Virus record (IMG/VR): IMGVR_UViG_3300041584_000032
Location: 1-62,896 of that record
Direction: 5' to 3' (one strand)
Origin: a virus
Lineage: Duplodnaviria > Caudoviricetes
DNA length: 62,896 nt
Part shown: positions 1 through 62,896 of the stretch, one piece after another
Numbering within the stretch: position 1 is the stretch's first letter
How the letters are laid out: each line of letters starts with the position of its first letter
Translations under genes and position numbers: made by a program
The notes under the pieces: model-generated
The model's database searches: none
What the model saw: only the letters and a program-made list of their open reading frames with translations
Told to the model about the DNA's origin: nothing

Positions 1-2
1 TA

Positions 3-524
3 GTTATTGATAACGACACGGAGCAGTCTGTATTTCACACACAGCAGGGCGCAAGGCAGGTGCTAGAAATGGTCGGTTATAAATATGGTGGTTATTATCC
101 TTACAGCATGAGAAGCCTTGACGTGGACCAGCGAATAGGCTTGATAAAATGGCAAATTAAAAACATAAAAAACATCGGGTTAATGTTTATTGACGGAATC
201 GCTGACCTAGTAAAAAACGTTAATGATATTGAGGAATGTAATGCGGTGGTACAACTACTTATGAGTTGGAGTAAAGAATACAAAATAGCAATCGGTACGG
301 TTTTGCACATGAATTACGGCACTTTAAAAGCCACAGGACATTTAGGAAGCAGCGTAACAAAGAAAGCGGAAACAGTTATAAGCGTTGTAACCGAAGATGA
401 TACAACTACGCTATCGGCTCAATATACACGGAACCGCGCTTTTTATGATATTGCGTTCAACTTAGATAATAATAGCCTGCCAATCCAAACCGAAGTAAAA
501 AATAAAAAAAATGGAAATTACTAA
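3..524 (+). CDS. RecA/DnaB-like AAA ATPase (helicase), C-terminal part, truncated by window edge
   Basis: Frame is open from base 3 (VIDNDTEQS). Walker B-like LMFIDGIADL, then VLH and GHLGS motifs typical of AAA_25-type helicases. Confidence 0.7.
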   Translation, partial: VIDNDTEQSVFHTQQGARQVLEMVGYKYGGYYPYSMRSLDVDQRIGLIKWQIKNIKNIGLMFIDGIADLVKNVNDIEECNAVVQLLMSWSKEYKIAIGTVLHMNYGTLKATGHLGSSVTKKAETVISVVTEDDTTTLSAQYTRNRAFYDIAFNLDNNSLPIQTEVKNKKNGNY

Positions 525-951
525 ATCAATTCACCGCATTGCCTGGAGATTTTCACAGGGTAAATCATTTGCGCCTAACGAAAATGATACGGACGCTTTA
601 AATGGCATAATAGCATTTTATAACCAGCAGCAGGAACAAATAAGTTTCTCTCAAGAACCGTTTGCAAAAATTTATCTTTACCTTTATCGCGAAATGATTT
701 TAAAGAAACAGTTTGAAGATGTTAACATACCTTTACGCAAAGCATTAGTAGACGCTTTAAGCGTTCCTATTGGTTTTCACATAGGTAATATTAAAAGCGA
801 AATGGAAACGGTAAGGATAGGCAACGCAGTCGCAAAGGAAAACTTAAAAACAGAAGATATTTTAGCGGCTCACATAGACCAAAGTAAATTAACCAAGTTT
901 TTGATTAATCAAATAAACCAAATTTTAACAGATTACGAACAAACGCAATAA
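511..951 (+). CDS. hypothetical protein
   Basis: 146-aa ORF overlapping the upstream stop, A-rich leader. Confidence 0.6.
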   Translation: MEITKSIHRIAWRFSQGKSFAPNENDTDALNGIIAFYNQQQEQISFSQEPFAKIYLYLYREMILKKQFEDVNIPLRKALVDALSVPIGFHIGNIKSEMETVRIGNAVAKENLKTEDILAAHIDQSKLTKFLINQINQILTDYEQTQ

Positions 952-960
952 CAAATAAAA

Positions 961-1566
961 ATGATTAAGCCAAAAGAAAAAGCGTGCAAGGGAACAGGAC
1001 AGGCAAAAGGTTACGGCTGCGGGAAGTTTACTTACCATCGCGTTTATGGCTTAGGCAAGATGTGTTGCTATTCAAATTGGCTACTAACAAGCGAAGCGGG
1101 TCGTATAAAGATGCATAAAGCTATTTTTAAAGCCGCTGCGCCACGTTTAGATATGCATAAGCAGATAGTAAGCGAGAAAAAAACAAAGGACTTAGAAACG
1201 CTTAAAAAGCAGGTTATGACGATTTGCCATAAGTACATAAGGCTGCGCGACAAAGGTTTGCCGTGCATTTCTTGCGGTGCTAAATGGAACGACCAATTCC
1301 AAGCAGGGCATTTTTTTAAAGCGGAGTTGTATAGTAATCTTAAATATCACGAGTTTAACATATTAGGGCAATGCCGAATATGTAATTTACACAAACAAGG
1401 GAACGAAAACGAGTACGCGCTGCGATTACCTAGTAGAATAGGTAAAGAAAATTTTGAAACCGTGCAAAAAATTGCAGCCGAAAGCAAACAAAGCGCGTTT
1501 AAATGGGATAGGCAAGAACTAAAAGCACTTTATATTTACTACCGCGATAAAATAAAAACGCTTTAA
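961..1566 (+). CDS. ninG: NinG/Rap-like recombination endonuclease (HNH-type)
   Basis: YIRLRDKGLPCISCG...QAGHF...NILGQCRICN matches the lambda NinG pattern. Confidence 0.85.
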   Translation: MIKPKEKACKGTGQAKGYGCGKFTYHRVYGLGKMCCYSNWLLTSEAGRIKMHKAIFKAAAPRLDMHKQIVSEKKTKDLETLKKQVMTICHKYIRLRDKGLPCISCGAKWNDQFQAGHFFKAELYSNLKYHEFNILGQCRICNLHKQGNENEYALRLPSRIGKENFETVQKIAAESKQSAFKWDRQELKALYIYYRDKIKTL

Positions 1567-1569
1567 TAG

Positions 1570-1599
1570 TTGCGTAACTAATATAATAGTGTATATTTG
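1570..1599 (+). promoter_or_regulatory. Bacteroidota sigma-A-type promoter
   Basis: TTG at 1570 and TATATTTG (TAnnTTTG, -7 box) at 1592-1599, upstream of ATG 1631. Confidence 0.65.
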
Positions 1600-1630
1600 C
1601 ACCATACAATAACAAACAAAACAAAACACA

Positions 1631-1960
1631 ATGAGCAATTTGCCAGCAGGTGCAGAACACGACCCACGCGCACCGTGGAACTACAACCACGTAACACCAG
1701 ACCCAGCAAATTGCCTTTGCTGCCAGCAAGATTTTCAGGACGATGATTGGGAGTATTTAGAACTATGCGGTTTTGACTGCGCGGATAGTTACATAGCGCA
1801 AAAGTTTAACGAGTTAGACCTGACAAGCCCCGCAGATTTAAAGATAGCAAACGGGTTATTTGTAACGGCTACCGAAATACAAGCAGATTGTTTGCAAGAA
1901 ATTACCAATAAACTAAAATTTAAATATGACACCAAAAGAAAAAGCAGAGCAATTGTATAA
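1631..1960 (+). CDS. hypothetical protein with Cys cluster
   Basis: NLPAGAEHDPRAPWN N-terminus and CLCC...CGFDC. Confidence 0.65.
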   Translation: MSNLPAGAEHDPRAPWNYNHVTPDPANCLCCQQDFQDDDWEYLELCGFDCADSYIAQKFNELDLTSPADLKIANGLFVTATEIQADCLQEITNKLKFKYDTKRKSRAIV

Positions 1961-2129
1961 TATTTTTGATATGATTATATACTCTGACCAAGACGAACAC
2001 GACCAATGTAAAAGATGTGCGATAAGATGCGTTGAGCAAATTATACTATCTCACGACAATTGGGCAACAGAACAAGATGAATATTTAGACTATTACAATA
2101 AAGTAAAGCACGAAATTAGCTTATTGTAG
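1926..2129 (+). CDS. hypothetical phage protein
   Basis: MTPKEKAEQL...KRCAIRCVEQII, a small phage-type ORF. Confidence 0.65.
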   Translation: MTPKEKAEQLYNIFDMIIYSDQDEHDQCKRCAIRCVEQIILSHDNWATEQDEYLDYYNKVKHEISLL

Positions 2130-2130
2130 T

Positions 2131-2257
2131 TAACGAATAAGAATATGAATAGTAAGGCGACTTTTACAGAGGTTAGGCTTGGAGTAATGGGAGGCTACAT
2201 ACACGCTGTGACGTGGCAAATAGTAGATACTCGCCAAGTTGCCTTATTATTTATATT
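2131..2257 (+). repeat. 127-bp exact direct repeat, copy 1
   Basis: Identical to 62770-62896, the window end. Confidence 0.95.
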
Positions 2258-2343
2258 TATTGTTGTATGTCTTTTTTAATTGCATACAACGGTCGAGTGT
2301 ATGATTAGTGGCGTAAATATTAACAGAATTAAATAAATAAGCG

Positions 2344-2634
2344 ATGAACAAAAAGCAGATAATTGACAAAATAGTAAATGACCTACCAATGAGTGATATG
2401 CTTGGTAAAATGACTAAAGAAGAATGGCACGGATGGTTTGAAGAATGCTGGTATAAAGCCATTAATTATACACATTGTTGTGAACAGTTGACGGTTAAAG
2501 AATGGGAAATTGATTTTGGTGGCGATGTGCTTGCAGGGTTAGAAGTAACTAATAACGAACCTAAAATAATAGGCGCAATGAATGGTTGGGGAAAGGGTAT
2601 TGATAAAGAAGCAATAACGATTACACAAAAGTAG
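2344..2634 (+). CDS. hypothetical protein spanning a cassette junction
   Basis: Starts inside hairpin site 2 and reads through its right arm (KAINYTHCC). Confidence 0.6.
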   Translation: MNKKQIIDKIVNDLPMSDMLGKMTKEEWHGWFEECWYKAINYTHCCEQLTVKEWEIDFGGDVLAGLEVTNNEPKIIGAMNGWGKGIDKEAITITQK

Positions 2635-2679
2635 TCTATTGTTTACAAATTAGAATATGAATAGTAAAAATTACGGCTT

Positions 2680-2823
2680 ATGGATCAATTACCTTTAGAC
2701 TTTAACTTGGTTATGTTATTATATGACCTTGATGAATTATTGACATTATTAGAAACCGATACTAAAAAATGGCAATGGTTAATAGATGAACTGAACAAAC
2801 AATTAAAAGAACAGATTGAGTAA
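2680..2823 (+). CDS. small hypothetical protein (47 aa) inside hairpin site 3
   Basis: MDQLPLDFNLVMLLYDLDELL...KEQIE*, read by eye and not in the ORF track. Confidence 0.45.
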   Translation: MDQLPLDFNLVMLLYDLDELLTLLETDTKKWQWLIDELNKQLKEQIE

Positions 2824-3044
2824 TTTTTATTATTTATATTCTGTGTTGTGTGCTTTTTTAATTGCATCATAACGGTACTCGTGTATGGCATCGGTTGCCC
2901 TCTTCACAAACTTGCTTGGCAACTGGGCTATACACGGTGTTAAGTATCTGTAAAAAATAAATTTTTAAGCGGTGGCAATTATTCATCGTAGCAAAGGGTT
3001 GCATTTTTCTTGCAACTGTTTGCGGTAACAAGAAACAAAGAATT

Positions 3045-4649
3045 ATGATAACAATAGGAAGTGATTTTAGTGGTGTAGGTGCATTTAACCAGGCATTAAT
3101 GAGATTGAATATTGACTTTAAAGAAATATTTGCTTGTGATATGGATAAATTTGCTAGAGAAACGTACATAGAAAATTATGGAGAACCTAGTTATTACCCA
3201 GAAAATGTTTATGATCGTGAAATTCCAAAAGAAAGTTTAGATATTTATATGACTTCGCCTCCTTGCCAAAGTTTTAGTTTAGCCGGTAAGAGAAAAGGAG
3301 AAGATTCTGCAAATGGTGTATTGTTTTATAATAGCCATGAATTTATTGTAAAAAACAATCCAAGATATTTTATTTTTGAAAATGTAAAAGGTCTTTTAAG
3401 CGATGCTAAGGGAAGAACTTTTCAAATTTGGCTAGATATGTTAGGTGGTAAAAGTGTAAACGGAAACCCCGTTATATTCCCTAGAGAAGATGCAACACCT
3501 TACCACATTTACCACCAAGTTTTAAACGCAAAACATTACGGAGTGCCACAAAATAGAGAGCGTGTTTTTATAGTTGGTATTCGTGATGATGCAGATAATA
3601 ACTTTCATTGGCCAAAGCCTTTTCATTTAGTAAAAAGATTAAAAGACGTTTTAGAAAAAAATGTAGATAAAAAGTTTTATTTAAGTGATAAATTAATTAA
3701 AGGATTTATTTCTCATAAAGATAGGCACGAAGAAAAAGGAACTGGTTTTAAATGGCAGCCAAAAAATGAAAATGATGTAGCAAACGCTTTGAGAGCAAAT
3801 GGTGCTTTATGCCCTACGGATAACTCTATTAAAGTTGGTTATATTAACCAAGACACACAAGCAAGTAAAGTTTTTTCAGAGGAAGGCACATCTCCTACGT
3901 TATCCGCAGGAACTTATGGATATGCACAAGGTTATGTTAAAGTAAAATCTGCAACCAAAAAAGGCTATGAAATTGCAACGGAAAACGATAGTATAAACTT
4001 ATCGCAACCAAATTCTGAAACAAGAAGAGGGCGAGTTGGTAAAGAAGTTGCGCAAACTTTAGATACAGCTTGTAATCAGGCGGTAATAATAAATAAAGCA
4101 GAGATACAAGTAATAGGAAATTTAAAAGGCGATAAAGGTCATAATGTACAAAACTATTATAGTATTGACGGAATTTCTCCAACGGTTATGGAAAATCATG
4201 GAAATGTCACTAAAGTAATGATTGGTGCTATTAGAGGTAGGAACCCAGAAAACCCATTAAGTAGAGAAGTTGGTTTACCAACGGAACAAAGATTAGAGTT
4301 AAATACAAACGGAACATCAAATGCTTTAACCACTGTACAAAAAGATAATGTGGTTGTTTATGGTAATTTAAAAGGTGGTAAATGGGATAAAACTCACGAA
4401 CAAAGTGGACGAGTTTATGATGTAAACGGAATTGGGGCAACTGTTCATACAATGGGAGGTGGTAATCAAGAACCTAAAATTTATCAAGATTATAATATAA
4501 GAAGATTAACCCCAAGAGAGTGCTTCCGTTTAATGGACTTCCCAGATACATTCACATGGCCCGTTAGTAATAGTCAAGCCTATAAGCAAGCTGGAAACAG
4601 TATTGTAGTAAATGTGTTGTCGGAAATACTTAAAAAAATGAATTTATAA
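3045..4649 (+). CDS. dcm: DNA cytosine-C5 methyltransferase
   Basis: Motif I DFSGVG, catalytic SPPCQSFS, ENVKGL, PQNRERVF, RRLTPRECFRLM, QAGNSI; long variable region. Confidence 0.95.
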   Translation: MITIGSDFSGVGAFNQALMRLNIDFKEIFACDMDKFARETYIENYGEPSYYPENVYDREIPKESLDIYMTSPPCQSFSLAGKRKGEDSANGVLFYNSHEFIVKNNPRYFIFENVKGLLSDAKGRTFQIWLDMLGGKSVNGNPVIFPREDATPYHIYHQVLNAKHYGVPQNRERVFIVGIRDDADNNFHWPKPFHLVKRLKDVLEKNVDKKFYLSDKLIKGFISHKDRHEEKGTGFKWQPKNENDVANALRANGALCPTDNSIKVGYINQDTQASKVFSEEGTSPTLSAGTYGYAQGYVKVKSATKKGYEIATENDSINLSQPNSETRRGRVGKEVAQTLDTACNQAVIINKAEIQVIGNLKGDKGHNVQNYYSIDGISPTVMENHGNVTKVMIGAIRGRNPENPLSREVGLPTEQRLELNTNGTSNALTTVQKDNVVVYGNLKGGKWDKTHEQSGRVYDVNGIGATVHTMGGGNQEPKIYQDYNIRRLTPRECFRLMDFPDTFTWPVSNSQAYKQAGNSIVVNVLSEILKKMNL

Positions 4650-4810
4650 CTAACCTTAGTAAAGCGGTAGGCGGACAAAAGGCAATGTGCTGTTTTTCTC
4701 AGCTCTTTGACTGTGCGGTTGCAAAAAGCGTTGGCATTTATTTTTTATTGTACTTAACGTAATTGTATATGGTTTGTTGCGAGTAAATAAGCCTAAATTT
4801 TGATTAATAA

Positions 4811-5734
4811 ATGACTTTAATAAACAGTAAATTACCTTTGAATATGGCACAAAATAGCAATAAATTATATACGGTGTTACCCAATGTAAAAAAGGGCGTG
4901 GCTGACGATAGTAAGACAAATTTAATGGTTACTGTTTCTGGTGGTCGTAGTTCTGCAATGGTAGCAAGGCATATACAAATGTCTAAAAAATATAAAAATT
5001 TTAATAAGATTTATGTTTTTGCTAATACAGGTCAAGAGAGAATTGAAACAATAGAATTTCTTAAAAATATGGTTAAACATTGGGGTCTGGAATTGAATAT
5101 TGTTGAAGGTGTTTATTCAAATATAATGGGTGTAGGTGTTAAATATAAACTTGTGGATTTTGAAACTCTATCAATGAATAGTGAGCCATTTTCTGGTGCG
5201 ATTATGCACAAAAATAAAGGAACTTTTGACGGTGTACCTAACCAAGAAGCACCTTATTGTAGTGAAAGTATGAAAACCATTCCTTGCAAAAAGTTTTGTG
5301 ATGATATTTTTGGTGTAAATAATTACATAAAATCAATAGGTTTTAGAAAAGAAGATATGCCTAAACGAATAACATTTACAGAAGTTAAAGAAGATAAAAA
5401 AAGAATATTTCCTTTATTAACAGATTTTGATAATGTAATTGGAAATATTGAATTAAATAGATGGTGGAAAAAACAACCTTTTAAATTAGAAATACACGGT
5501 GATTTAGGTAATTGCGAATTATGTTGGAAAAAATCTGACAAAACGCTTCTCAAAAATATAAGACACGGAACGAGGTCTATTAATTGGTGGAAAAAAATGG
5601 AAGAAAAATACGAAAATACAGCGTTTAGAGGTAGAAAATCAATAGATGATTTAGTGAAAATGGCTGAATTACCATATACACACGAATTTAATTTTCCAAA
5701 ACAAGAAGAAGATAATTGTGTATGCTCCTTTTAG
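4811..5734 (+). CDS. PAPS-reductase/PP-loop family protein
   Basis: VSGGRSSA PP-loop, FANTGQE, PYCSESMK, GNCELCWKK, C-terminal CVC. Start codon uncertain. Confidence 0.85.
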   Translation: MTLINSKLPLNMAQNSNKLYTVLPNVKKGVADDSKTNLMVTVSGGRSSAMVARHIQMSKKYKNFNKIYVFANTGQERIETIEFLKNMVKHWGLELNIVEGVYSNIMGVGVKYKLVDFETLSMNSEPFSGAIMHKNKGTFDGVPNQEAPYCSESMKTIPCKKFCDDIFGVNNYIKSIGFRKEDMPKRITFTEVKEDKKRIFPLLTDFDNVIGNIELNRWWKKQPFKLEIHGDLGNCELCWKKSDKTLLKNIRHGTRSINWWKKMEEKYENTAFRGRKSIDDLVKMAELPYTHEFNFPKQEEDNCVCSF

Positions 5735-5848
5735 CACCTCCAACCGCAATATTGGTCGCCCTTTTTTATTTTGGGTAACATCTGATATGTGAAACTTTAA
5801 AAGGGAAGGGGAAAACTCAGAGTACCCATAAAAATAAATATAATTATA

Positions 5849-6145
5849 ATGGCACAAGAAGAGAAAATTTTTGCAGACGGATTCATTTTTAAGAGGAACG
5901 ATAAAGCTCCTGAGTTCGTAATTGGTAGATTGTCAATGAAAGTTGATGAAGCGATTGAATTTATTAAGAGCAACCAAAAGAATGGTTGGGTAAACCTTGG
6001 CATTAAACAAGCTAGAAGTGGTAACTACTATGTTGAGTTGGATACCTTTGAAGCCAACAAAGCAAATTCAGAGGTTAAACAAGCCGTAAATACACCTATT
6101 CCGGAGGGGATTGTTGGCGAAGGGGATGATTTCGATTTATTTTAA
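5849..6145 (+). CDS. probable single-stranded DNA-binding protein
   Basis: Small beta-rich protein with acidic, aromatic-ending tail (GDDFDLF), upstream of the primase. Confidence 0.6.
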   Translation: MAQEEKIFADGFIFKRNDKAPEFVIGRLSMKVDEAIEFIKSNQKNGWVNLGIKQARSGNYYVELDTFEANKANSEVKQAVNTPIPEGIVGEGDDFDLF

Positions 6146-6155
6146 CCTACAAAAC

Positions 6156-6186
6156 AAAGGGGAGCATGATAGTTCCCCTTTTATTT
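6156..6186 (+). terminator. intrinsic terminator
   Basis: AAAGGGGAGC...GTTCCCCTTT hairpin plus T-run after the SSB gene. Confidence 0.75.
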
Positions 6187-6204
6187 CCATTACTTTGTAC
6201 CGAA

Positions 6205-6366
6205 AATGACAAAAAAAAATCACTATACTAACACTATACAAATATATATATATATATTTTTTTTAAATTTCATTTTAATAAAATAATTGACATAAAAGAC
6301 ATTATAACTGAATGTCAATAAGTTATAAAAACAAAAACGACATAAAAACGACATAAAAATGACACG
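6205..6366. other. origin-like AT-rich region with GACA(T) iterons
   Basis: (TA)n and T-runs, tandem AAAAACGACAT at 6333-6354 and further GACA copies, directly upstream of the primase-helicase. Confidence 0.45.
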
Positions 6367-8782
6367 AAACGTAACAATCTTCCAAAACATTAGGGATACA
6401 GACACTCCCTTCTATCGTGATGTAAACGTTATCCTAGACAGGATACGAGAAGGGGCAGGGGCTACCAAGGACATAGTCAAGAGAATTAGACTTGAGAAAA
6501 ACAAATCAGAACGTAACGAAATTAAGAAGCTATTGCCTGCTATATGCTTTAGCGGTACTTTCAAAAAACGATTAGATTCAGCACTCGAATTACACTCAGG
6601 ACTTATATGTTTGGATTTTGATGGGTTCGAGAAACAAAAAGAACTTCTTCAAAACAAAGAGACAATATCTAAGAACAAGTATGTATTTGCAGTTTTCATA
6701 AGCCCATCAGGTAATGGACTAAAAGTGTTAGTCAAGATACCCGCAGACCTTGAGAACCATGCGAACTACTTTAATAGCCTAGAAAAGCATTTTAACAGCC
6801 CCTATTTCGATAAAACAAGTAAAAACATTAGTAGGGTATGTTACGAGAGTTACGACCCCTTAATACACGTTAATATCAATTCTAGCATTTGGGATGTTAT
6901 CGAGGAGCCGGAATATACGGAGATAAGTAAAGTAAGAGACCAAGCGACCATAGCAATCACAGATGAAAATAAGATTGTAGACATACTTGTGAGATGGTGG
7001 AATAAGAAATACCCCATGCAGGAAGGGCAGCGAAATCAAAACGCTTACATACTTGCAATGGCTTTTAATGACTTTGGAATAAACAAGAGCTTAGCAGCTT
7101 ATGTGCTTAATCATTACGCTACATCAGAATTTACGCTTTCAGAGATTGCAACAACAATCGACTCGGCATACAGGCACGTTGCGAACTTCGGAACCAAGTA
7201 CTATGAGGATGATGAAAGAGTCAACAACATAAAGGCAAAGCTTAGACGGGGTGTTTCAAAAAAAGAAGTAAAACTTCAACTTAAAGACTCAGGACTAGAT
7301 GAAGAGACCATTGATTCCGTGCTTAACAAAGTTGAGGATGAGAATTTAAAGATGTCATTTTGGACTAAAAACGATAAAGGTGCTATCAAAATTGAGCATA
7401 TACTTTTTAAGCTTTTCTTAGAGGACTCAGGATTCTATAAGTTCTGTCCGGAAGGCAGTAGGAACTACGTTTTTGTAAAGGTTACCAATAATCTTATTGA
7501 CCATACAACAGAGAAAGAAATCAAGGATTATGTTTTAAACCACTTACTAGAGCTAGATGACTACAGTATCTATAACTACTTTGCAGATCAAACCCGATTC
7601 TTTAAAGATGATTTTCTTACGTTGCTTTCGACTATAGAGATTTACTTTATTGCAGACAGCAAGGACTCAGCTTACTTGTATTACAAAAACTGTGCGGTTA
7701 AGATTACTAAGGATGCTATTAAAACAATAGATTATTTGGACTTAGGAGGTTACGTTTGGAAAGACCACGTGATTGATAGAAACTTTAATATTTGCGAGAT
7801 CACAGGAGAATGTGATTTTAAAAGGTTTGTAAGCAATATAAACGGTGGCGATGCTAACAGGGTAAAGACCATGGAGAGTACATTAGGATTCTTACAGCAC
7901 GGATACAAGAACCTATCTTTCTGTCCTGCAGTTATACTTAACGATGAAGTGATAAGCGATAACCCTGAGGGAGGGACAGGAAAGGGATTGATTATGAACG
8001 CCCTTAGCAACATGAAGAAGCTAGTGGTTATAGATGGTAAGTCCTTTAACTTTGAGAAGTCATTCCCGTATCAGTTGGTTTCAGCAGACACACAAATCCT
8101 TTGCTTCGATGACGTGAAAAAGCATTTTGATTTCGAGAGACTTTTCTCTGTGATTACAGAAGGATTAACCCTTGAGAAGAAGAATAAAGATGCAATTAAG
8201 ATTCCTTTTCCAAAGTCGCCTAAGGTTACATTGACAACAAACTATGCCATAAAAGGTGCAGGAAATTCTTTTGCAAGAAGAAAATGGGAACTCGAACTAC
8301 ATCAGTATTATAGCATGAGTTTTACTCCAAGAGATGACTTTGGTAGAATGATGTTTGGGGATTGGAATGATGAAGAGTGGTGCGAGTTTGATAACTACAT
8401 GATTGGATGCTTAAAGTACTACCTTAATGCCGGATTGGTAAAGTCTAAGTTTGTTAATCTAAAAATCAGACAGCTATCAGCAGAGACTTGCCACGAATTT
8501 ATAGAATGGTGTGGATTGGTAGACAGTAATGATAGAAGTGATATGTTGCCACCAAATGTAAGGCTCTATAAAAATGACCTGTATAGCAATTTCATTGAGG
8601 AGCATCCTGACTACGGAGCAAGGGGTAAGATGACTATTAGTAGAACTAAGTTCTATAAGTGGTTAGTTGCCTACGCTATATTTAAAGAAGGAATAATGCC
8701 CGATGAAGACCGAGACCATATTGGCCGGTGGATAATAATAAAGAAGAGAGCAGACAACGATACACAAATTCAATTAAACTAA
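6359..8782 (+). CDS. primase-helicase (BT4734/VirE-N primase domain, PriCT-like domain, P-loop helicase)
   Basis: LPAICFSG, SGLICLDFD, FISPSGNGLK, RVCYESYDP; EGQRN; Walker A GGTGKG; Walker B LCFDD. Confidence 0.9.
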   Translation: MTRNVTIFQNIRDTDTPFYRDVNVILDRIREGAGATKDIVKRIRLEKNKSERNEIKKLLPAICFSGTFKKRLDSALELHSGLICLDFDGFEKQKELLQNKETISKNKYVFAVFISPSGNGLKVLVKIPADLENHANYFNSLEKHFNSPYFDKTSKNISRVCYESYDPLIHVNINSSIWDVIEEPEYTEISKVRDQATIAITDENKIVDILVRWWNKKYPMQEGQRNQNAYILAMAFNDFGINKSLAAYVLNHYATSEFTLSEIATTIDSAYRHVANFGTKYYEDDERVNNIKAKLRRGVSKKEVKLQLKDSGLDEETIDSVLNKVEDENLKMSFWTKNDKGAIKIEHILFKLFLEDSGFYKFCPEGSRNYVFVKVTNNLIDHTTEKEIKDYVLNHLLELDDYSIYNYFADQTRFFKDDFLTLLSTIEIYFIADSKDSAYLYYKNCAVKITKDAIKTIDYLDLGGYVWKDHVIDRNFNICEITGECDFKRFVSNINGGDANRVKTMESTLGFLQHGYKNLSFCPAVILNDEVISDNPEGGTGKGLIMNALSNMKKLVVIDGKSFNFEKSFPYQLVSADTQILCFDDVKKHFDFERLFSVITEGLTLEKKNKDAIKIPFPKSPKVTLTTNYAIKGAGNSFARRKWELELHQYYSMSFTPRDDFGRMMFGDWNDEEWCEFDNYMIGCLKYYLNAGLVKSKFVNLKIRQLSAETCHEFIEWCGLVDSNDRSDMLPPNVRLYKNDLYSNFIEEHPDYGARGKMTISRTKFYKWLVAYAIFKEGIMPDEDRDHIGRWIIIKKRADNDTQIQLN

Positions 8783-8788
8783 ATAGAC

Positions 8789-9124
8789 ATGACGGAAGGA
8801 CAATTAGTACACCTTGGAATGGTTAATTCATACAATGTGTTAGTAGGTAACGCCACCTTAGAGGAAATTATATCAGCAAAAATAGGCGTTTTCTCTCACT
8901 CCCTAGAAGAGTCAGATGCTAAGAAAAGCATAGAGCTAATGATTTTCTATTTTAAAGAAATAGAGATGTATGAATACTGCGCAGGACTACAGGATTATAT
9001 TGAAGATGTTTTTGATAATGAAGGACTTTATAAAAATAACTATTGTGTTTGCACCTATCCTCAGATAGAAAAGTACGTTAATAGAATTAAATGCAAAAAA
9101 TGCGGGATGAAAATAGAACTGTAG
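8789..9124 (+). CDS. hypothetical protein with C-terminal zinc ribbon
   Basis: CVC...CKKCG. Confidence 0.65.
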   Translation: MTEGQLVHLGMVNSYNVLVGNATLEEIISAKIGVFSHSLEESDAKKSIELMIFYFKEIEMYEYCAGLQDYIEDVFDNEGLYKNNYCVCTYPQIEKYVNRIKCKKCGMKIEL

Positions 9125-10599
9125 ACATAATTAAGGAAACCTTTGGATACAACAACTATGAAATGTGGCAAAAAATGGAGCGCCTTAAGTTTGTTGTGCT
9201 ATCTAAAACAGATATTAATGTTGGCAGAGGAAAGAATGCGACAATAGAAAAACAATTCAAATACAACACCTCCAAGGATGTTATAGATAGAATTTTGAAT
9301 AGCTGCGATTACTATAAAAAACTTTATGACGAAGATATGAAAGTACAAGAGGCGCTGTTAAGCGGAAATATTCAGTTTAGAGATTATCAAAGAGATATAA
9401 TAATTAAAGGATCTAAGGTTGTTAAAGACCATGGATTTATATATCTCGCCATGGAAGTTCGCACGGGTAAAACACTTACAAGCCTAGGAATAGCATCATT
9501 GATTGGAGCAAAGAATGTATTGTTTCTCACAAAGCTAAAGGCAATATCAAGCATCCAAAGAGACTACTATGCATTGGCCCCTAGCTATGAGTTGGTGGTA
9601 ATGAACTACGAGAGCATACACAAGCTTCCTGACACTAATTGGGATTTAATAGTGTGCGATGAAGCACACACCATGGGCGCGTTCCCTAAGCCAAGTAAAA
9701 GAGCTATTCAAGTCAATGGATTAATTAAGTCAACCAAAGCCAAAGTAATACTTCTTTCAGGGACTCCTACTCCTGAGTCTTATTCTCAGATGTATCATCA
9801 GGTTTATGGAATCCCAAACAACCCGTTTAATCAGTTCAAAAACTTTTATAGATTTTGTGATAACTTTGTAAATGTTACTTCTAAGATTATTAACGGGTTT
9901 GCGATAAAGGATTACTCAAAAGGATTGGAGTCAATAATAAACAAGATGGCTCCTTATACCGTAAACTATACTCAAGAAGAAGCAGGGTTTATTGCTAAGA
10001 CAACAGAAGAAGTGTTTGAGGTAGAGATGAAGGAGTCCACGTATAAGCTCATAAAAAAGCTTAAAAAGGATTTGTTGGTGCAAGGTAAAGAAGAGCTAAT
10101 CATGGGAGACACGCCTGTAAAATTAATGAGTAAGGTACATCAGATGTTTTCAGGTACAGTTAAATTTGAAAGTGGTAAGTCCATGGTGCTTGACACAACC
10201 AAAGCAGAGTTTATTAAAGAGCAATGGGAAGGATGTCAGATAGGAATCTTCTACAAGTTTAAAGAAGAATTGGTAGCACTGCAGCAGGTTTTTGGAGATA
10301 ATCTGACAACAGAACTTAGTGTCTTTGAAGACACTTACAAGAACATTGCTTTGCAGATTGTTGCGGGAAGGGAAGGTATCTCTTTAAAAAAGGCTGAGTA
10401 TCTTGTGTATTACAACATAGACTTTAGTGCCACGAGTTATTGGCAGTCAAAGGACAGGATGACTACCAAGGAAAGATTAGAGAATAAAGTTTTTTGGATA
10501 TTCTCAAAAGGAGGTATCGAGCACGAGATTTACAAGGCAGTTACAAAAAAGAAGGACTATACATTAGCTCACTTCAAGAAAGATTTTTACATAAAATAA
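9091..10599 (+). CDS. SF2 (SNF2-like/DEAH) helicase
   Basis: FRDYQ, EVRTGKT, CDEAH, LSGTP, GREGISL, QSKDR. Start uncertain. Confidence 0.9.
   Translation: MQKMRDENRTVDIIKETFGYNNYEMWQKMERLKFVVLSKTDINVGRGKNATIEKQFKYNTSKDVIDRILNSCDYYKKLYDEDMKVQEALLSGNIQFRDYQRDIIIKGSKVVKDHGFIYLAMEVRTGKTLTSLGIASLIGAKNVLFLTKLKAISSIQRDYYALAPSYELVVMNYESIHKLPDTNWDLIVCDEAHTMGAFPKPSKRAIQVNGLIKSTKAKVILLSGTPTPESYSQMYHQVYGIPNNPFNQFKNFYRFCDNFVNVTSKIINGFAIKDYSKGLESIINKMAPYTVNYTQEEAGFIAKTTEEVFEVEMKESTYKLIKKLKKDLLVQGKEELIMGDTPVKLMSKVHQMFSGTVKFESGKSMVLDTTKAEFIKEQWEGCQIGIFYKFKEELVALQQVFGDNLTTELSVFEDTYKNIALQIVAGREGISLKKAEYLVYYNIDFSATSYWQSKDRMTTKERLENKVFWIFSKGGIEHEIYKAVTKKKDYTLAHFKKDFYIK
10319..10334. repeat. 16-bp palindrome GTGTCTTTGAAGACAC, copy 1
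   Basis: Exact copy inside the helicase CDS. Confidence 0.95.
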
Positions 10600-60893: not shown

Positions 60894-61580
60894 ATGAAAA
60901 TAGCAAAATATACTTTTGAAAAACTGTCAGCTATCAATGTGAACGCTCACGTTGAGAAGAAAAGCAACCTTACCTACCTATCTTGGGCTTGGGCTTGGAG
61001 CGAAACGAAGAAGGCTTGTCCGGATGCAACTTATAAGATTGGATCCACAGACTACGATGAGACACTAGGATTCATGTGCCATACCGAGGTTACTATTTCA
61101 GGAGAGACATTGGAGATGTGGTTGCCCGTTATGGATGGAGCCAACAAATCAATGCGAAAAGTACCTTACACCTACAAAGGGAACGCTTGGGAGTCAGGTA
61201 AGAAAGTAACTATTGACAAGACGGTAGAGGCAGCAACGACCTTTGATATAAATAAGACCATTATGAGATGCTTGGTTAAGAACTTAGCCATGTTTGGTTT
61301 GGGTATTTATATATATGCAGGCGAAGACCTACCGGAGACTATAGCAGAGGCGACACCTACGTCAGCCCCAAAGCGAGAGGATGTTGTTTCAGTTAAAAAA
61401 GAAGTTGAAGCGCCTACATTAGAGGCACTTGAAAAGGACACAGACAATTGGAGAAAAGTCGTTAAATATGTTACCGACAACAAGGTTCAAGGCATTGAGA
61501 AAATTGGAAAGCAACTGAGTCGAAAGTACAGTATGACACCTGAAATCAAAAAAATGATAATCAAATTAATAAGCGAATAG
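60894..61580 (+). CDS. sak: Sak (Rad52-like, DUF1071) single-strand annealing protein
   Basis: LTYLSWAWAW, MWLPVMD, INKTIMRCLVKNLAMFGLGIYIYAGEDLP. Confidence 0.9.
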   Translation: MKIAKYTFEKLSAINVNAHVEKKSNLTYLSWAWAWSETKKACPDATYKIGSTDYDETLGFMCHTEVTISGETLEMWLPVMDGANKSMRKVPYTYKGNAWESGKKVTIDKTVEAATTFDINKTIMRCLVKNLAMFGLGIYIYAGEDLPETIAEATPTSAPKREDVVSVKKEVEAPTLEALEKDTDNWRKVVKYVTDNKVQGIEKIGKQLSRKYSMTPEIKKMIIKLISE

Positions 61581-61582
61581 TC

Positions 61583-62326
61583 ATGGAAAATTTAAAAGAT
61601 GTTCTTGAGTTGTTGAAAGATGACACTCAATACTACACAGGGATTGGTAAAGAGTACCTATCTAATTCAGACATAGGCACGTTGCTCAGCAACCCACGTC
61701 TATATGGAAAAGAACGTGAAGACAGCAAGGCTTTCATGGAAGGGAGGTATTTTCATCAGTTGATTCTTGAGCCTAGCAAGGCAAAGGACTTAATGTTTGT
61801 GGACTGCAGCACCCGAACTACAAAGATATATAAGGAGTTTTGCGAAACGAACAGCCTTCCTTTTTGTATGCTACAGAAAGAGAAAGAAGATGTTGAAGAG
61901 TTGGTTTCTGTTATCAAGGCAAACATTACTTTTTACGAAGAGATCTTTAAAGAAGGCAATCAGTACGAGGTTCCTGCGGTTACGGAAATCCATGGGATGA
62001 TGTGGAAAGGAAAGGCCGATATAGTTACCAACGAGATTATAATAGACCTTAAGACCACCTCAGACATAGAGAAGTTCAAGTGGAACGCAAAGAAGTACAA
62101 CTACGATTCACAGTGCTATATTTATCAGATGCTTTTCGGAAAGCCGTTAGTGTTTTTTGTGATAGACAAAACGAGTCAGGTTCTAGGTATTTTCAGACCG
62201 ACACAAGAGTTTGTAGATGGTGGAGAGCAGAAAGTCATTAAAGCAATCGAGGCTTACAACCGATACTTTTCTGTCAATTCCAAAGAGGATATAGATAGCT
62301 ATTTTGTGGATGAATACTTATTTTAA
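61583..62326 (+). CDS. RecE/DUF3799-like PD-(D/E)XK exonuclease
   Basis: LSNSDI, GRYFH, KGKAD, DLKTT, YDSQCYIY. Confidence 0.85.
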   Translation: MENLKDVLELLKDDTQYYTGIGKEYLSNSDIGTLLSNPRLYGKEREDSKAFMEGRYFHQLILEPSKAKDLMFVDCSTRTTKIYKEFCETNSLPFCMLQKEKEDVEELVSVIKANITFYEEIFKEGNQYEVPAVTEIHGMMWKGKADIVTNEIIIDLKTTSDIEKFKWNAKKYNYDSQCYIYQMLFGKPLVFFVIDKTSQVLGIFRPTQEFVDGGEQKVIKAIEAYNRYFSVNSKEDIDSYFVDEYLF

Positions 62327-62769: not shown

Positions 62770-62896
62770 TAACGAATAAGAATATGAATAGTAAGGCGAC
62801 TTTTACAGAGGTTAGGCTTGGAGTAATGGGAGGCTACATACACGCTGTGACGTGGCAAATAGTAGATACTCGCCAAGTTGCCTTATTATTTATATT
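62770..62896 (+). repeat. 127-bp exact direct repeat, copy 2
   Basis: Identical to 2131-2257. Confidence 0.95.

Follow-up and report, generated by a model that had tools for sequence, protein, structure and literature searches.

A probable integron-like gene-cassette array, lacking an integrase of its own, in a Flavobacteriaceae phage

The virus record IMGVR_UViG_3300041584_000032 (Duplodnaviria; Caudoviricetes) is considered here at its full length of 62,896 nucleotides (nt), with this whole stretch of DNA referred to in the following as the window. Between its positions 2131 and 5795 there is a run of hairpin sites resembling the attC sites of integrons, along with short, geneless units and two gene-bearing cassettes, one encoding a C5 cytosine DNA methylase and the other an enzyme resembling 3'-phosphoadenosine 5'-phosphosulfate (PAPS) reductase. 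This run is probably an integron-like gene-cassette array of a Flavobacteriaceae phage, that is, an array which lacks an integrase and which would be worked in trans by a recombinase of the host or of a co-resident element. Action in trans is the natural inference because no tyrosine recombinase (PF00589) was found in the whole record.

Sites and their fold

In anatomy the sites are alike: the AAC/GTT core forms the R boxes, next come a bulge that is asymmetric and a stem of 16 bp, the L boxes, in which G.T wobbles are conserved, and the interior varies. As searched for on the + strand using a flexible regular expression, the arm motifs are confined to positions 2131-4880 plus a single copy at 62770. 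A covariance model, here called R1, was trained on 11 phage sites of this family, including that at 4755-4879 (site 5), with the resulting alignment displaying a 16-bp consensus stem, compensatory change in 11 pairs, and one invariant G.U. When run over the whole window with filters off, R1 detects four sites inside 2131-4879 (Table 1), i.e., two or more attC-type sites within a few kb as judged by the family's own model, and nothing beyond those four at E<0.5. The highest scoring, site 5, has arms that are identical to the consensus of the host sites described below, along with an AT-rich interior.

An earlier note on this DNA, made from its letters, had proposed five foldable sites, and the positions it gave hold. 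R1 finds four of the five; the one it misses, site 3, starts with TTAC and yet its arms are the second-best inverted repeat of region 1800-6200, arms which in addition are paralogous to site 1. Other claims of that note likewise are borne out, these being a better folding strand, inverted repeats around both large genes, two near-identical 29-nt units (direct repeats of one another), a lack of integrase, and a final half-site at 5776-5790. What it missed is that the contig ends in 127 nt which repeat site 1 without a single difference, with that identity beginning at TAAC.

Site lengths range from 47 to 200 nt and fall, in both phages and hosts, into discrete classes of approximately 47-73, 123-129, and 189-200 nt, the last as seen in Polaribacter phage P12002S, Cellulophaga phage phi18:3, phage locus L006, and hosts. 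In phages, an open reading frame (ORF) regularly begins inside sites of the ~190-nt class, as one does in site 2. No Pfam family was found for the ORF in question (2344-2634), which furthermore is unrelated to likewise placed ORFs of other phages. The idea that ORFs starting within ~190-nt sites represent one protein family was rejected, these ORFs being unrelated to each other.

The + strand is the better folding strand at all five of the elements that were folded. Using RNA parameters, energies for the + versus the - strand are -22.2/-11.1, -29.5/-20.6 (site 4; z -4.5 on +), -40.7/-27.5 (site 1), -15.6/-8.0 (the hairpin at 2244-2303 of mini-cassette 1; z -4.5 on +), and -10.1/-3.7 kcal/mol. 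Across an alignment of 30 phage-side sites, AAC and GTT are invariant (30/30), and standard pairs are present in 95.5% of pair cells versus 75.0% upon shuffling, with none of 500 shuffles reaching 95.5%, though as an alignment fitted to R1 it does favor structure. Changes are seen on both sides in 16 of the 20 pairs, the covariation score is 0.533 versus 0.152, and slid controls are 29-49% paired. At two positions a G.U is conserved, in 25 and 26 of the 30 sites, respectively. The bulge is asymmetric in the sense of spacers that are 6-8 nt on one side versus 3-4 nt on the other, and neither the bulge nor the conserved G.T pairs can be matched to the canonical extrahelical bases that set strand choice.

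Cassettes and their complementary ends

Units of the array are delimited by the C of successive (T)AAC motifs, and each consists in order of the site, GTTA, a cassette-specific sequence (Y), the gene, the counterpart of that sequence (Y'), and TAA. The longest as well as best inverted repeat found in 1800-6200 (I1; 4867-4898 / 5757-5788; 32 nt, 84%) lies around the PAPS-reductase-like gene, the ORF of which is listed as 4811-5734, with candidate starts at 4845 or 4926. The methylase is flanked by an inverted repeat that is gapped, as read by eye (2929-2966 / 4737-4771), with a Y/Y' run of 4. Exact 4-5-nt complements following GTTR are common in the window, such that 100 of 461 YAAC have a partner within 6 kb, and an exact-run Y/Y' test inside the window was not significant alone. 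As short complements are not rare, the weight of the end repeats of the window therefore comes from their position and extension. Among host cassettes (n=291), by comparison, the 6 nt after GTTA and the 6 nt before the next TAAC share a complementary run of at least 4 nt in 68.4% of instances versus 5.9% for the control. This end complementarity extends over 20-32 nt in phage cassettes versus about 6 nt in host cassettes.

Natural variants and the terminal half-site

Variants of the array are found among Logan contigs from four salt-lake metagenome runs, X1-X4, of four studies, contigs which hold parts of positions 1-6400; where X2-X4 had no contig over a portion of the array, that portion was left out of the evidence. 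In contigs of X1, X2, and X3, position 2287 is joined to 5777 and the 3489 nt between are missing; the two sides of the joint have three letters (AAC) in common. In a contig of X4 the joint is instead 2869 to 5776, with 2906 nt skipped and four common letters (TAAC). The left side of the first joint is the CAAC at 2287-2290 and that of the second is the TAAC at 2870-2873. The variants are nested: the smallest has site 1 and a mini-cassette, the next extends as far as site 3 and a mini-cassette, and the largest is the full array. The methylase cassette is missing from the variant contigs. Loose contig ends are found before 2131 and 4755 and behind 2290, 2850, and 4879. Module 2645-2850 is present, 100% identical, in an 8.2-kb contig of X3 with flanks that are unlike those of the window; site 3 is a discrete mobile module.

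The right-hand junction of both of these clean, AAC-core joints, and also of a third (1911 to 5777), is the terminal half-site, with a fourth joint (2135 to 5762) ending 14 nt upstream. Variants that end at the half-site are the pattern that would be expected if cassettes enter there. The earlier note had treated the half-site as an incomplete site, one without a right arm. It resembles instead an attI-like motif, of the YAAC-N2-6-TATAT type, that lies 40-70 nt upstream of phage-encoded recombinase genes at eight loci, and accordingly we read window 5776-5795 as a putative attI-like entry site which has lost, or which never had, its recombinase gene.

Depth in X1 is 7-11 over positions 1-2130 and 7.1 at the 2287 to 5777 joint, both below that over 2261-6400 (21.7). 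Window position 1 lies inside a gene without an upstream stop, and the flank upstream of the 62770 copy of site 1 appears in X1 as a loose end at 2131. As the depth of 1-2130 matches that of the cassette-less joint, the record may join two strain variants via the repeated site 1, or instead the genome may possess two copies of this site.

The same sites in other phages

The family of sites is not restricted to the window. A blastn match to phage phi18:3 begins exactly at the GTT of the methylase cassette, with the same layout found in that phage around a different methylase and neighboring small genes. Homologues of site 5, 123-126 nt in length, are present in phi18:3, in Polaribacter phages P12002S and Danklef_1, in Tenacibaculum phage PTm1, and in several IMG/VR contigs. 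Polaribacter phage P12002L has R1 sites in its methylase region and its sister phage, P12002S, has at least seven. Between unrelated phages the arms, each of about 25 nt, hardly differ. An integrase of phi18:3 (gp037), encoded just downstream of the array of that phage, was considered as the array recombinase and rejected as unrelated.

Window 4756-4921 corresponds to positions 2887-3051 of locus L016 at 91.6% identity and window 5748-5779 to L016 4251-4282 at 96.9%, and the blocks that the two have in common start and end at AAC. Between these, L016 carries a NUMOD4/HNH endonuclease gene in place of the PAPS-reductase-like gene, with the same site, Y, leader, and tail. In a 'GGGCG' frame, five phages each have a different gene. 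By way of the variant joints, the L016 blocks, and the site 1 duplicate, the crossover is placed at the core triplet, with the triplet, not the exact bond, being the resolution of that placement.

Gene cassettes that are linked by repeated stem-loops can be exchanged in other ways as well. In T4-type phages, PeSL (promoter early stem-loop) cassettes are exchanged by homologous recombination. The joints of the window might by analogy be conserved linkers that are swapped by the phage's own single-strand annealing over short homology, with no site-specific enzyme involved. The phage does encode a Sak-type annealing protein and a PDDEXK nuclease, and a NinG gene lies beside the array both here and in L006, P12002S, and P12002L. 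Arms that are near-identical among unrelated phages would supply homology, and different genes are found within identical frames, with breakpoints inside of the cassette (window versus L016; the 'GGGCG' frame with its five genes). The 2287 to 5777 and 2869 to 5776 joints, however, have only AAC or TAAC in common, which is far too short for annealing-based exchange, nor would linkers need a hairpin, covariation, strand bias, or Y/Y' complementarity. Sigma-70-like promoters moreover are not enriched (14 versus 21.7 expected, in a scan that did not include Bacteroidota promoters), nor are terminators. Linkers alone are an unlikely account of the array, and the annealing route probably adds to site-specific exchange rather than replacing it. 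Particularly, the in-cassette gene replacement seen with L016 is probably a product of short-homology recombination, for which the phage possesses enzymes.

PeSL elements and those of the window do resemble each other, in that both are repeated, intergenic stem-loop elements which lie around small accessory genes of hypervariable regions and which mark where related phages differ by insertion, deletion, or replacement (PMC2839356, PMC4122927). As described in the portions of those papers available, however, PeSLs are promoter-terminator motifs (PMC2839356, PMC4122927), whereas the elements of the window have 3-4-letter junctions, covariation, strand bias, copies in hosts, and an associated tyrosine recombinase.

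Host arrays and their recombinase

The two-arm pattern is present at 120 or more loci of a species-representative genome collection. Among the matches listed, all titles are Flavobacteriales except for one Labilibaculum metagenome-assembled genome (MAG) and one MAG labelled only as Bacteroidetes. R1 gives 149 matches in 28 host loci, on the same strand within each locus for those rows inspected, and the listed matches are mostly 0.5-1.5 kb apart. One Polaribacter genome, G001, has at least 147 R1 matches, mostly in a single block at 1,900,206-2,032,411, and comparable blocks are carried by two other complete host genomes, with arrays reaching about 130 kb. Out of 61 genomes drawn evenly from the family of G001, i.e., Flavobacteriaceae, 55 have an R1 match at E<=1e-5. 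That small, high-coverage host contigs with such sites might be rRNA operons was rejected, as no Rfam family was found in six such loci.

At the end of four of the five main arrays of three complete host genomes there is a PF00589 gene. The order seen in host locus L223, for example, is a recombinase gene (371 aa, + strand), then cassette ORFs, also on +, each followed by a site for which the R1 orientation is -. Scores of this recombinase are below curated cut-offs, 192 bits versus 265 for TIGR02249 and 207.5 versus 220 for NF040815 (XerA/integron integrase), and its closest solved relative is XerA. Alignment with Vibrio IntI4 (2a3v) consists of two stretches, between which there are 23 residues where IntI4 has 66, those 66 being what we take to be the region of the IntI-specific domain. 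The host-array recombinase, as predicted from its sequence, is Xer-like, lacks the IntI-specific domain, and is not a canonical IntI.

Viruses also encode relatives of this enzyme, at 56 loci, and for 7 of the best 18 of those loci R1 sites lie beside the recombinase gene. In L235, for instance, five sites are followed by a gene for a 266-aa recombinase (5740-6540), with the last cassette ending in Y'-TAAC, then a short TATAT-type box, and the start of the gene about 50 nt further on.

Strand-specific hairpins that lie beside a conserved tetranucleotide could bring to mind a different class of element. In IS200/IS605-type transposons, an HUH/Y1 transposase recognizes subterminal hairpins, and the units of the window could be envisaged as ends of such single-strand transposons, similar to palindrome-associated transposable elements (PATE-like), with a short target such as TAAC. 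As no enzyme is present, trans action would be required for these as well. But no Y1/HUH transposase (PF01797) was found in the record, it is tyrosine recombinases rather than HUH enzymes that adjoin the sites in hosts and in phages, and the sites are arranged in head-to-tail arrays, one per gene, rather than as pairs of left and right ends. We give this explanation next to no credence.

Orientation of genes relative to sites

Of 327 host cassettes, 229 have their main ORF on the strand opposite to the site model and 15 have it on that of the model, with 83 ambiguous. Of 17 phage cassettes, the ORF shares the strand of the model in 10 and opposes it in none, with 7 ambiguous. The folding strand, that is, is the bottom strand relative to the ORFs of hosts but is the coding strand in phages. 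Phage cassettes are thus inverted relative to those of hosts, with the site upstream of its gene and transcribed as a leader, and none of the 17 phage cassettes is seen to have an ORF that reads towards its own attC.

This is an orientation which is relevant to whether the hairpins act chiefly as RNA, i.e., as intercistronic leaders or as elements of processing, stability, or translation, with 5' and 3' flanks pairing as do rRNA stems and with the variation in cassettes as a by-product. Consistent with such a role, the well-folding strand of phages is the coding strand and has conserved G.U pairs, every array gene is co-oriented with the fold (the 10 same, 0 opposite, and 7 ambiguous just noted), ORFs start inside of sites, and the interior of phage-type sites is AT-rich, unlike that of the host type. 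In hosts, by contrast, the fold lies on the strand opposite to the ORF for 229 of 327 cassettes, and for that reason the conserved fold is not an mRNA element there. Junctions of variants, too, fall upon the AAC core with only 3-4 letters in common, and a tyrosine recombinase accompanies the sites in hosts as well as in phages. No Rfam family was matched (Rfam 15, gathering score; 0 matches across the whole 62.9-kb window), with only chance-level matches at E up to 10 in window 1500-6500, and no intrinsic terminator was predicted within the array, the one that was predicted being outside of it. A primarily RNA-based function is on balance highly unlikely, but sites may have an additional role as RNA in phages. 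A Bacteroidota-type promoter (TTTG...TAnnTTTG) was looked for by eye in site interiors, where the spacing did not fit, and no claim is made of it.

An ATG inside of the site opens a frame which runs through the right arm and cassette start into the gene in the window (4845-4925), in L016 (2976-3060), and in L099 (6087-6160). Otherwise unrelated proteins, i.e., PAPS reductase, HNH endonuclease, and adenine methyltransferase, thereby come to resemble one another at the N terminus (..LYTVLP.VKK..). For the window, L016, and P12002S_0053, the gene downstream is read in the frame of the right arm, and a conserved leader peptide, (K/E)LYTVLP..VKK, was for that reason considered. As the primary signal it was rejected, because in phi18:3, L007, and PTm1 this DNA either does not code or is read in a different frame; the T-to-C changes involved, moreover, are neutral for the stem as well.

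Proposed mechanism and its weak points

A cassette array worked in trans could operate as follows. The host or a co-infecting element would supply an Xer/IntI-like tyrosine recombinase, and this enzyme would cut the folded + strand of a site within its 5' TAAC, i.e., between TAA and C. That is where the crossover would be if the enzyme cuts where integron integrases do, with the unit then being a site followed by its gene. Cassettes would be excised as circles, and in the closed, circular form Y and Y' would lengthen the stem of the hairpin. Insertion would take place at the terminal attI-like half-site, 5776-5795, and the array would have grown in a stepwise manner, with its methylase and PAPS-reductase cassettes the newest. 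This scheme is drawn from anatomy, homology, adjacency, and natural variants.

Various points weigh against it. No recombination was observed and no recombinase is present in the record, and that the host-array recombinase acts upon these sites is suggested from adjacency only, with that enzyme lacking the IntI-specific domain and scoring under both of the integron-integrase cut-offs. The sites were called by R1, a model that was trained on the same family and that does not detect site 3, nor is the P12002L attC that was tested by Qi et al. confirmed as an R1 site. Behind site 2, the ends of segment 2481-2642 are not complementary, and no Y/Y' partner was found. Joints were taken from contigs, not reads, with a shorter side of 26-38 nt, over which cross-matches are possible, and two of them (1911 to 5777 and 2135 to 5762) are not cleanly on AAC. 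The breakpoints of the gene replacement between window and L016 lie inside the cassette (4921, 5748), where site-specific recombination at AAC leaves them unexplained. Lastly, in phages it is the mRNA-sense strand that folds, which leaves room for a role as RNA.

Relation to known systems

Seventeen attC clusters in phages have been reported, one of them in the virulent Polaribacter phage P12002L along with two methyltransferases (Qi et al. 2023, PMC9892861). Two sites were predicted there, their directions being called divergent, and one P12002L attC was found to recombine with attI1 under IntI1, with its bottom strand only (PMC9892861). That cluster of attC sites lacking an integrase (CALIN) is much like the window, i.e., a small array with AAC/GTT hairpins and orphan DNA methyltransferases, in a virulent-type marine Flavobacteriaceae phage without an integrase (PMC9892861). 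The window differs in having five sites along with the attI-like half-site and in having variants which join at the core, and the available portions of the P12002L report connect its sites neither with host arrays or an Xer-like recombinase nor with a family of sites across phages or an inverted orientation of genes (PMC9892861). The window is a further and richer example of these published phage attC clusters. Bacteroidota are listed among phyla possessing integrons in a review, as available in part (PMC8618304), and the taxon-specific attC models of Ghaly et al. 2021 are, in that portion of the paper available, without Bacteroidota (PMC8352920). Literature searches turned up no paper on the arrays of Flavobacteriaceae hosts, on their recombinase without the IntI-specific domain, or on the inversion of genes in phages.

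In the Vibrio superintegron, repeats are about 125 bp. Similarities between the Flavobacteriaceae host arrays and sedentary chromosomal integrons, as the latter are described in the available parts of two sources, include long, one-directional arrays of short cassettes, homogeneous ~125-nt hairpin repeats, a terminal tyrosine recombinase, folding opposite to ORFs, and complementarity between the start of a cassette and the core of the site belonging to it (PMC8618304, PMC4889954). The Flavobacteriaceae recombinase differs in being without the IntI domain, in being closest to XerA, and in being co-oriented with the cassettes, and the sites differ in a complementary extension of about 6 nt beyond GTTA, in conserved G.T wobbles, and in an asymmetric bulge, with the genes inverted in phages.

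It follows from these comparisons that one element of the earlier note is to be set aside. It had viewed the array as a distinct system, whereas each arm of the sites has its homologue in the repeats of Flavobacteriaceae chromosomal arrays which lie next to an Xer/IntI-like recombinase, and the spacers and long stems that it called non-canonical are normal features of the host site family. Its single-strand cassette shuffling, mobilized in trans, is retained as the probable kind of system and mechanism but not as a system that is separate. Of the co-occurring enzymes that it proposed be looked for, tyrosine recombinases are present (4/5 host arrays, 7/18 phage loci) and HUH enzymes are not. 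And where it held that invariant cassette order or breakpoints elsewhere would speak against shuffling, content is seen to vary between genomes and junctions to be at AAC.

Features of the window and its genomic context

The window is the whole of the IMG/VR record, 62,896 bp and labelled 'linear', with a G+C of 36% and a CheckV completeness estimate of 100%. From the ORF list, every gene in window 1-9000 is on the + strand. Features are collected in Table 1.

Table 1. Sites, cassettes, and selected genes of the window (R1 scores were obtained with filters off unless otherwise indicated).
Feature	Position	Strand	Basis
NinG	961-1566	+	Family match
Site 1, attC-like hairpin (TAAC...GTTG), 135 nt	2131-2265	+	R1 34.8 bits
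Mini-cassette 1, geneless 29-nt GTTG...CAAC unit	2262-2290	+	Direct repeat D1; hairpin 2244-2303
Site 2, ~190-nt length class	2287-2480	+	R1 55.8 bits with default filters; 2287-2407 alone, 26.9 bits, filters off
96-aa ORF, starts inside site 2, reads across GTTG	2344-2634	+	ORF list
Site 3, degenerate (TTAC...GTTG, not YAAC), arms 30 nt around 47-aa ORF 2680-2823	2643-2848	+	Inverted repeat I2, direct repeat D5
Mini-cassette 2, 29-nt GTTG...TAAC unit	2845-2873	+	Direct repeat D1
Site 4, short attC-like hairpin, 73 nt	2870-2942	+	R1 28.9 bits, E 0.0037
C5 cytosine DNA methylase cassette, GTTA-AGTA.../...TACT-TAAC	2939-4758	+	ORF 3045-4649, PF00145 1.1e-69
Site 5, phage-type attC-like hairpin, 125 nt; contains ATG 4845	4755-4879	+	R1 113.4 bits
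PAPS-reductase-like cassette, GTTA-CCCAA.../...TTGGG-TAAC	4876-5779	+	PF01507 1.2e-05 (weak)
Terminal half-site (TAAC, 6 nt, TATGTG, AAAC)	5776-5795	+	Read from sequence; right-hand variant junction
Primase-helicase-type protein	6359-8782	+	Family match
Sak-type annealing protein and PDDEXK nuclease	60894-62326		Family matches
Site 1, second copy, cut by contig end, after a different gene	62770-62896	+	127 nt, 100% identical to 2131-2257

By megablast, the first 25 kb has no match among named phages. Relatives of the record, 80 in number, were collected via its primase. None of these 80 shares DNA upstream of about 5830, and R1 sites, three in total, are found in just two of them. Because of this, the array is, so far as can be judged from such comparison, a lineage-specific acquisition within a hypervariable region. 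For window 1-2130, no paralogue was found elsewhere in the record, nor any homologue close to the primase in relatives.

Most of the relatives (L019-L098) have a conserved element of about 60 nt with two interleaved complementary pairs, i.e., pseudoknot-like, which sits approximately 60-130 nt upstream of the homologue of a window gene, 5849-6145 (98 aa), as at about 9430-9490 in L041. Often preceded by tRNA genes or by a 16-bp palindrome, this element is absent at the equivalent place in the window. Rfam, as run on four loci of relatives, detected tRNAs in two (L041, L052) but no family for the pseudoknot-like element. The tRNA matches in L052, at 8578-8685 and 9291-9415, span 108 and 125 nt although the model has 71 positions, so that the phage tRNA genes of that locus may contain inserts or introns. 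Hammerhead-like modules that had been noted earlier at 55.9-59.4 kb of the window remain below curated Rfam hammerhead thresholds. Genes for NinG (Rap-type) adjoin the array in four different phages, i.e., the window, L006, L099 (7757-8419), and L222 (924-1586).

Implications

It is about an even proposition that the Flavobacteriaceae and many unrelated phages share a single capture system, one that is run by an Xer-like recombinase without the IntI domain and that has been largely missed by surveys of integrons. The phage form of this system would be gene-inverted, with the site doubling as a transcribed leader, cassettes would enter one by one at the half-site, and the salt-lake variants would be snapshots of a process that stocks phages with methylases and counter-defense genes. 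Were this so, then integron-type capture would not be restricted to IntI-bearing bacteria, and would indeed be near-ubiquitous in a major marine family via a simpler, Xer-like enzyme. The combination of site and small recombinase would then also be a tractable pair for the study of single-strand site recognition without the IntI domain.

For phages, the consequence would be that those of at least five unrelated lineages plug into a capture system of their hosts. They would thereby possess a site-specific route by which small accessory genes may be gained, lost, and traded, mutually and perhaps with the cassette store of the host as well. The cargo in this case is an orphan cytosine methylase and a PAPS-reductase-like enzyme, the latter possibly DNA-modifying, and in relatives it consists of other methylases and homing endonucleases. 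Such a route would account for the hypervariable region in this family of phages.

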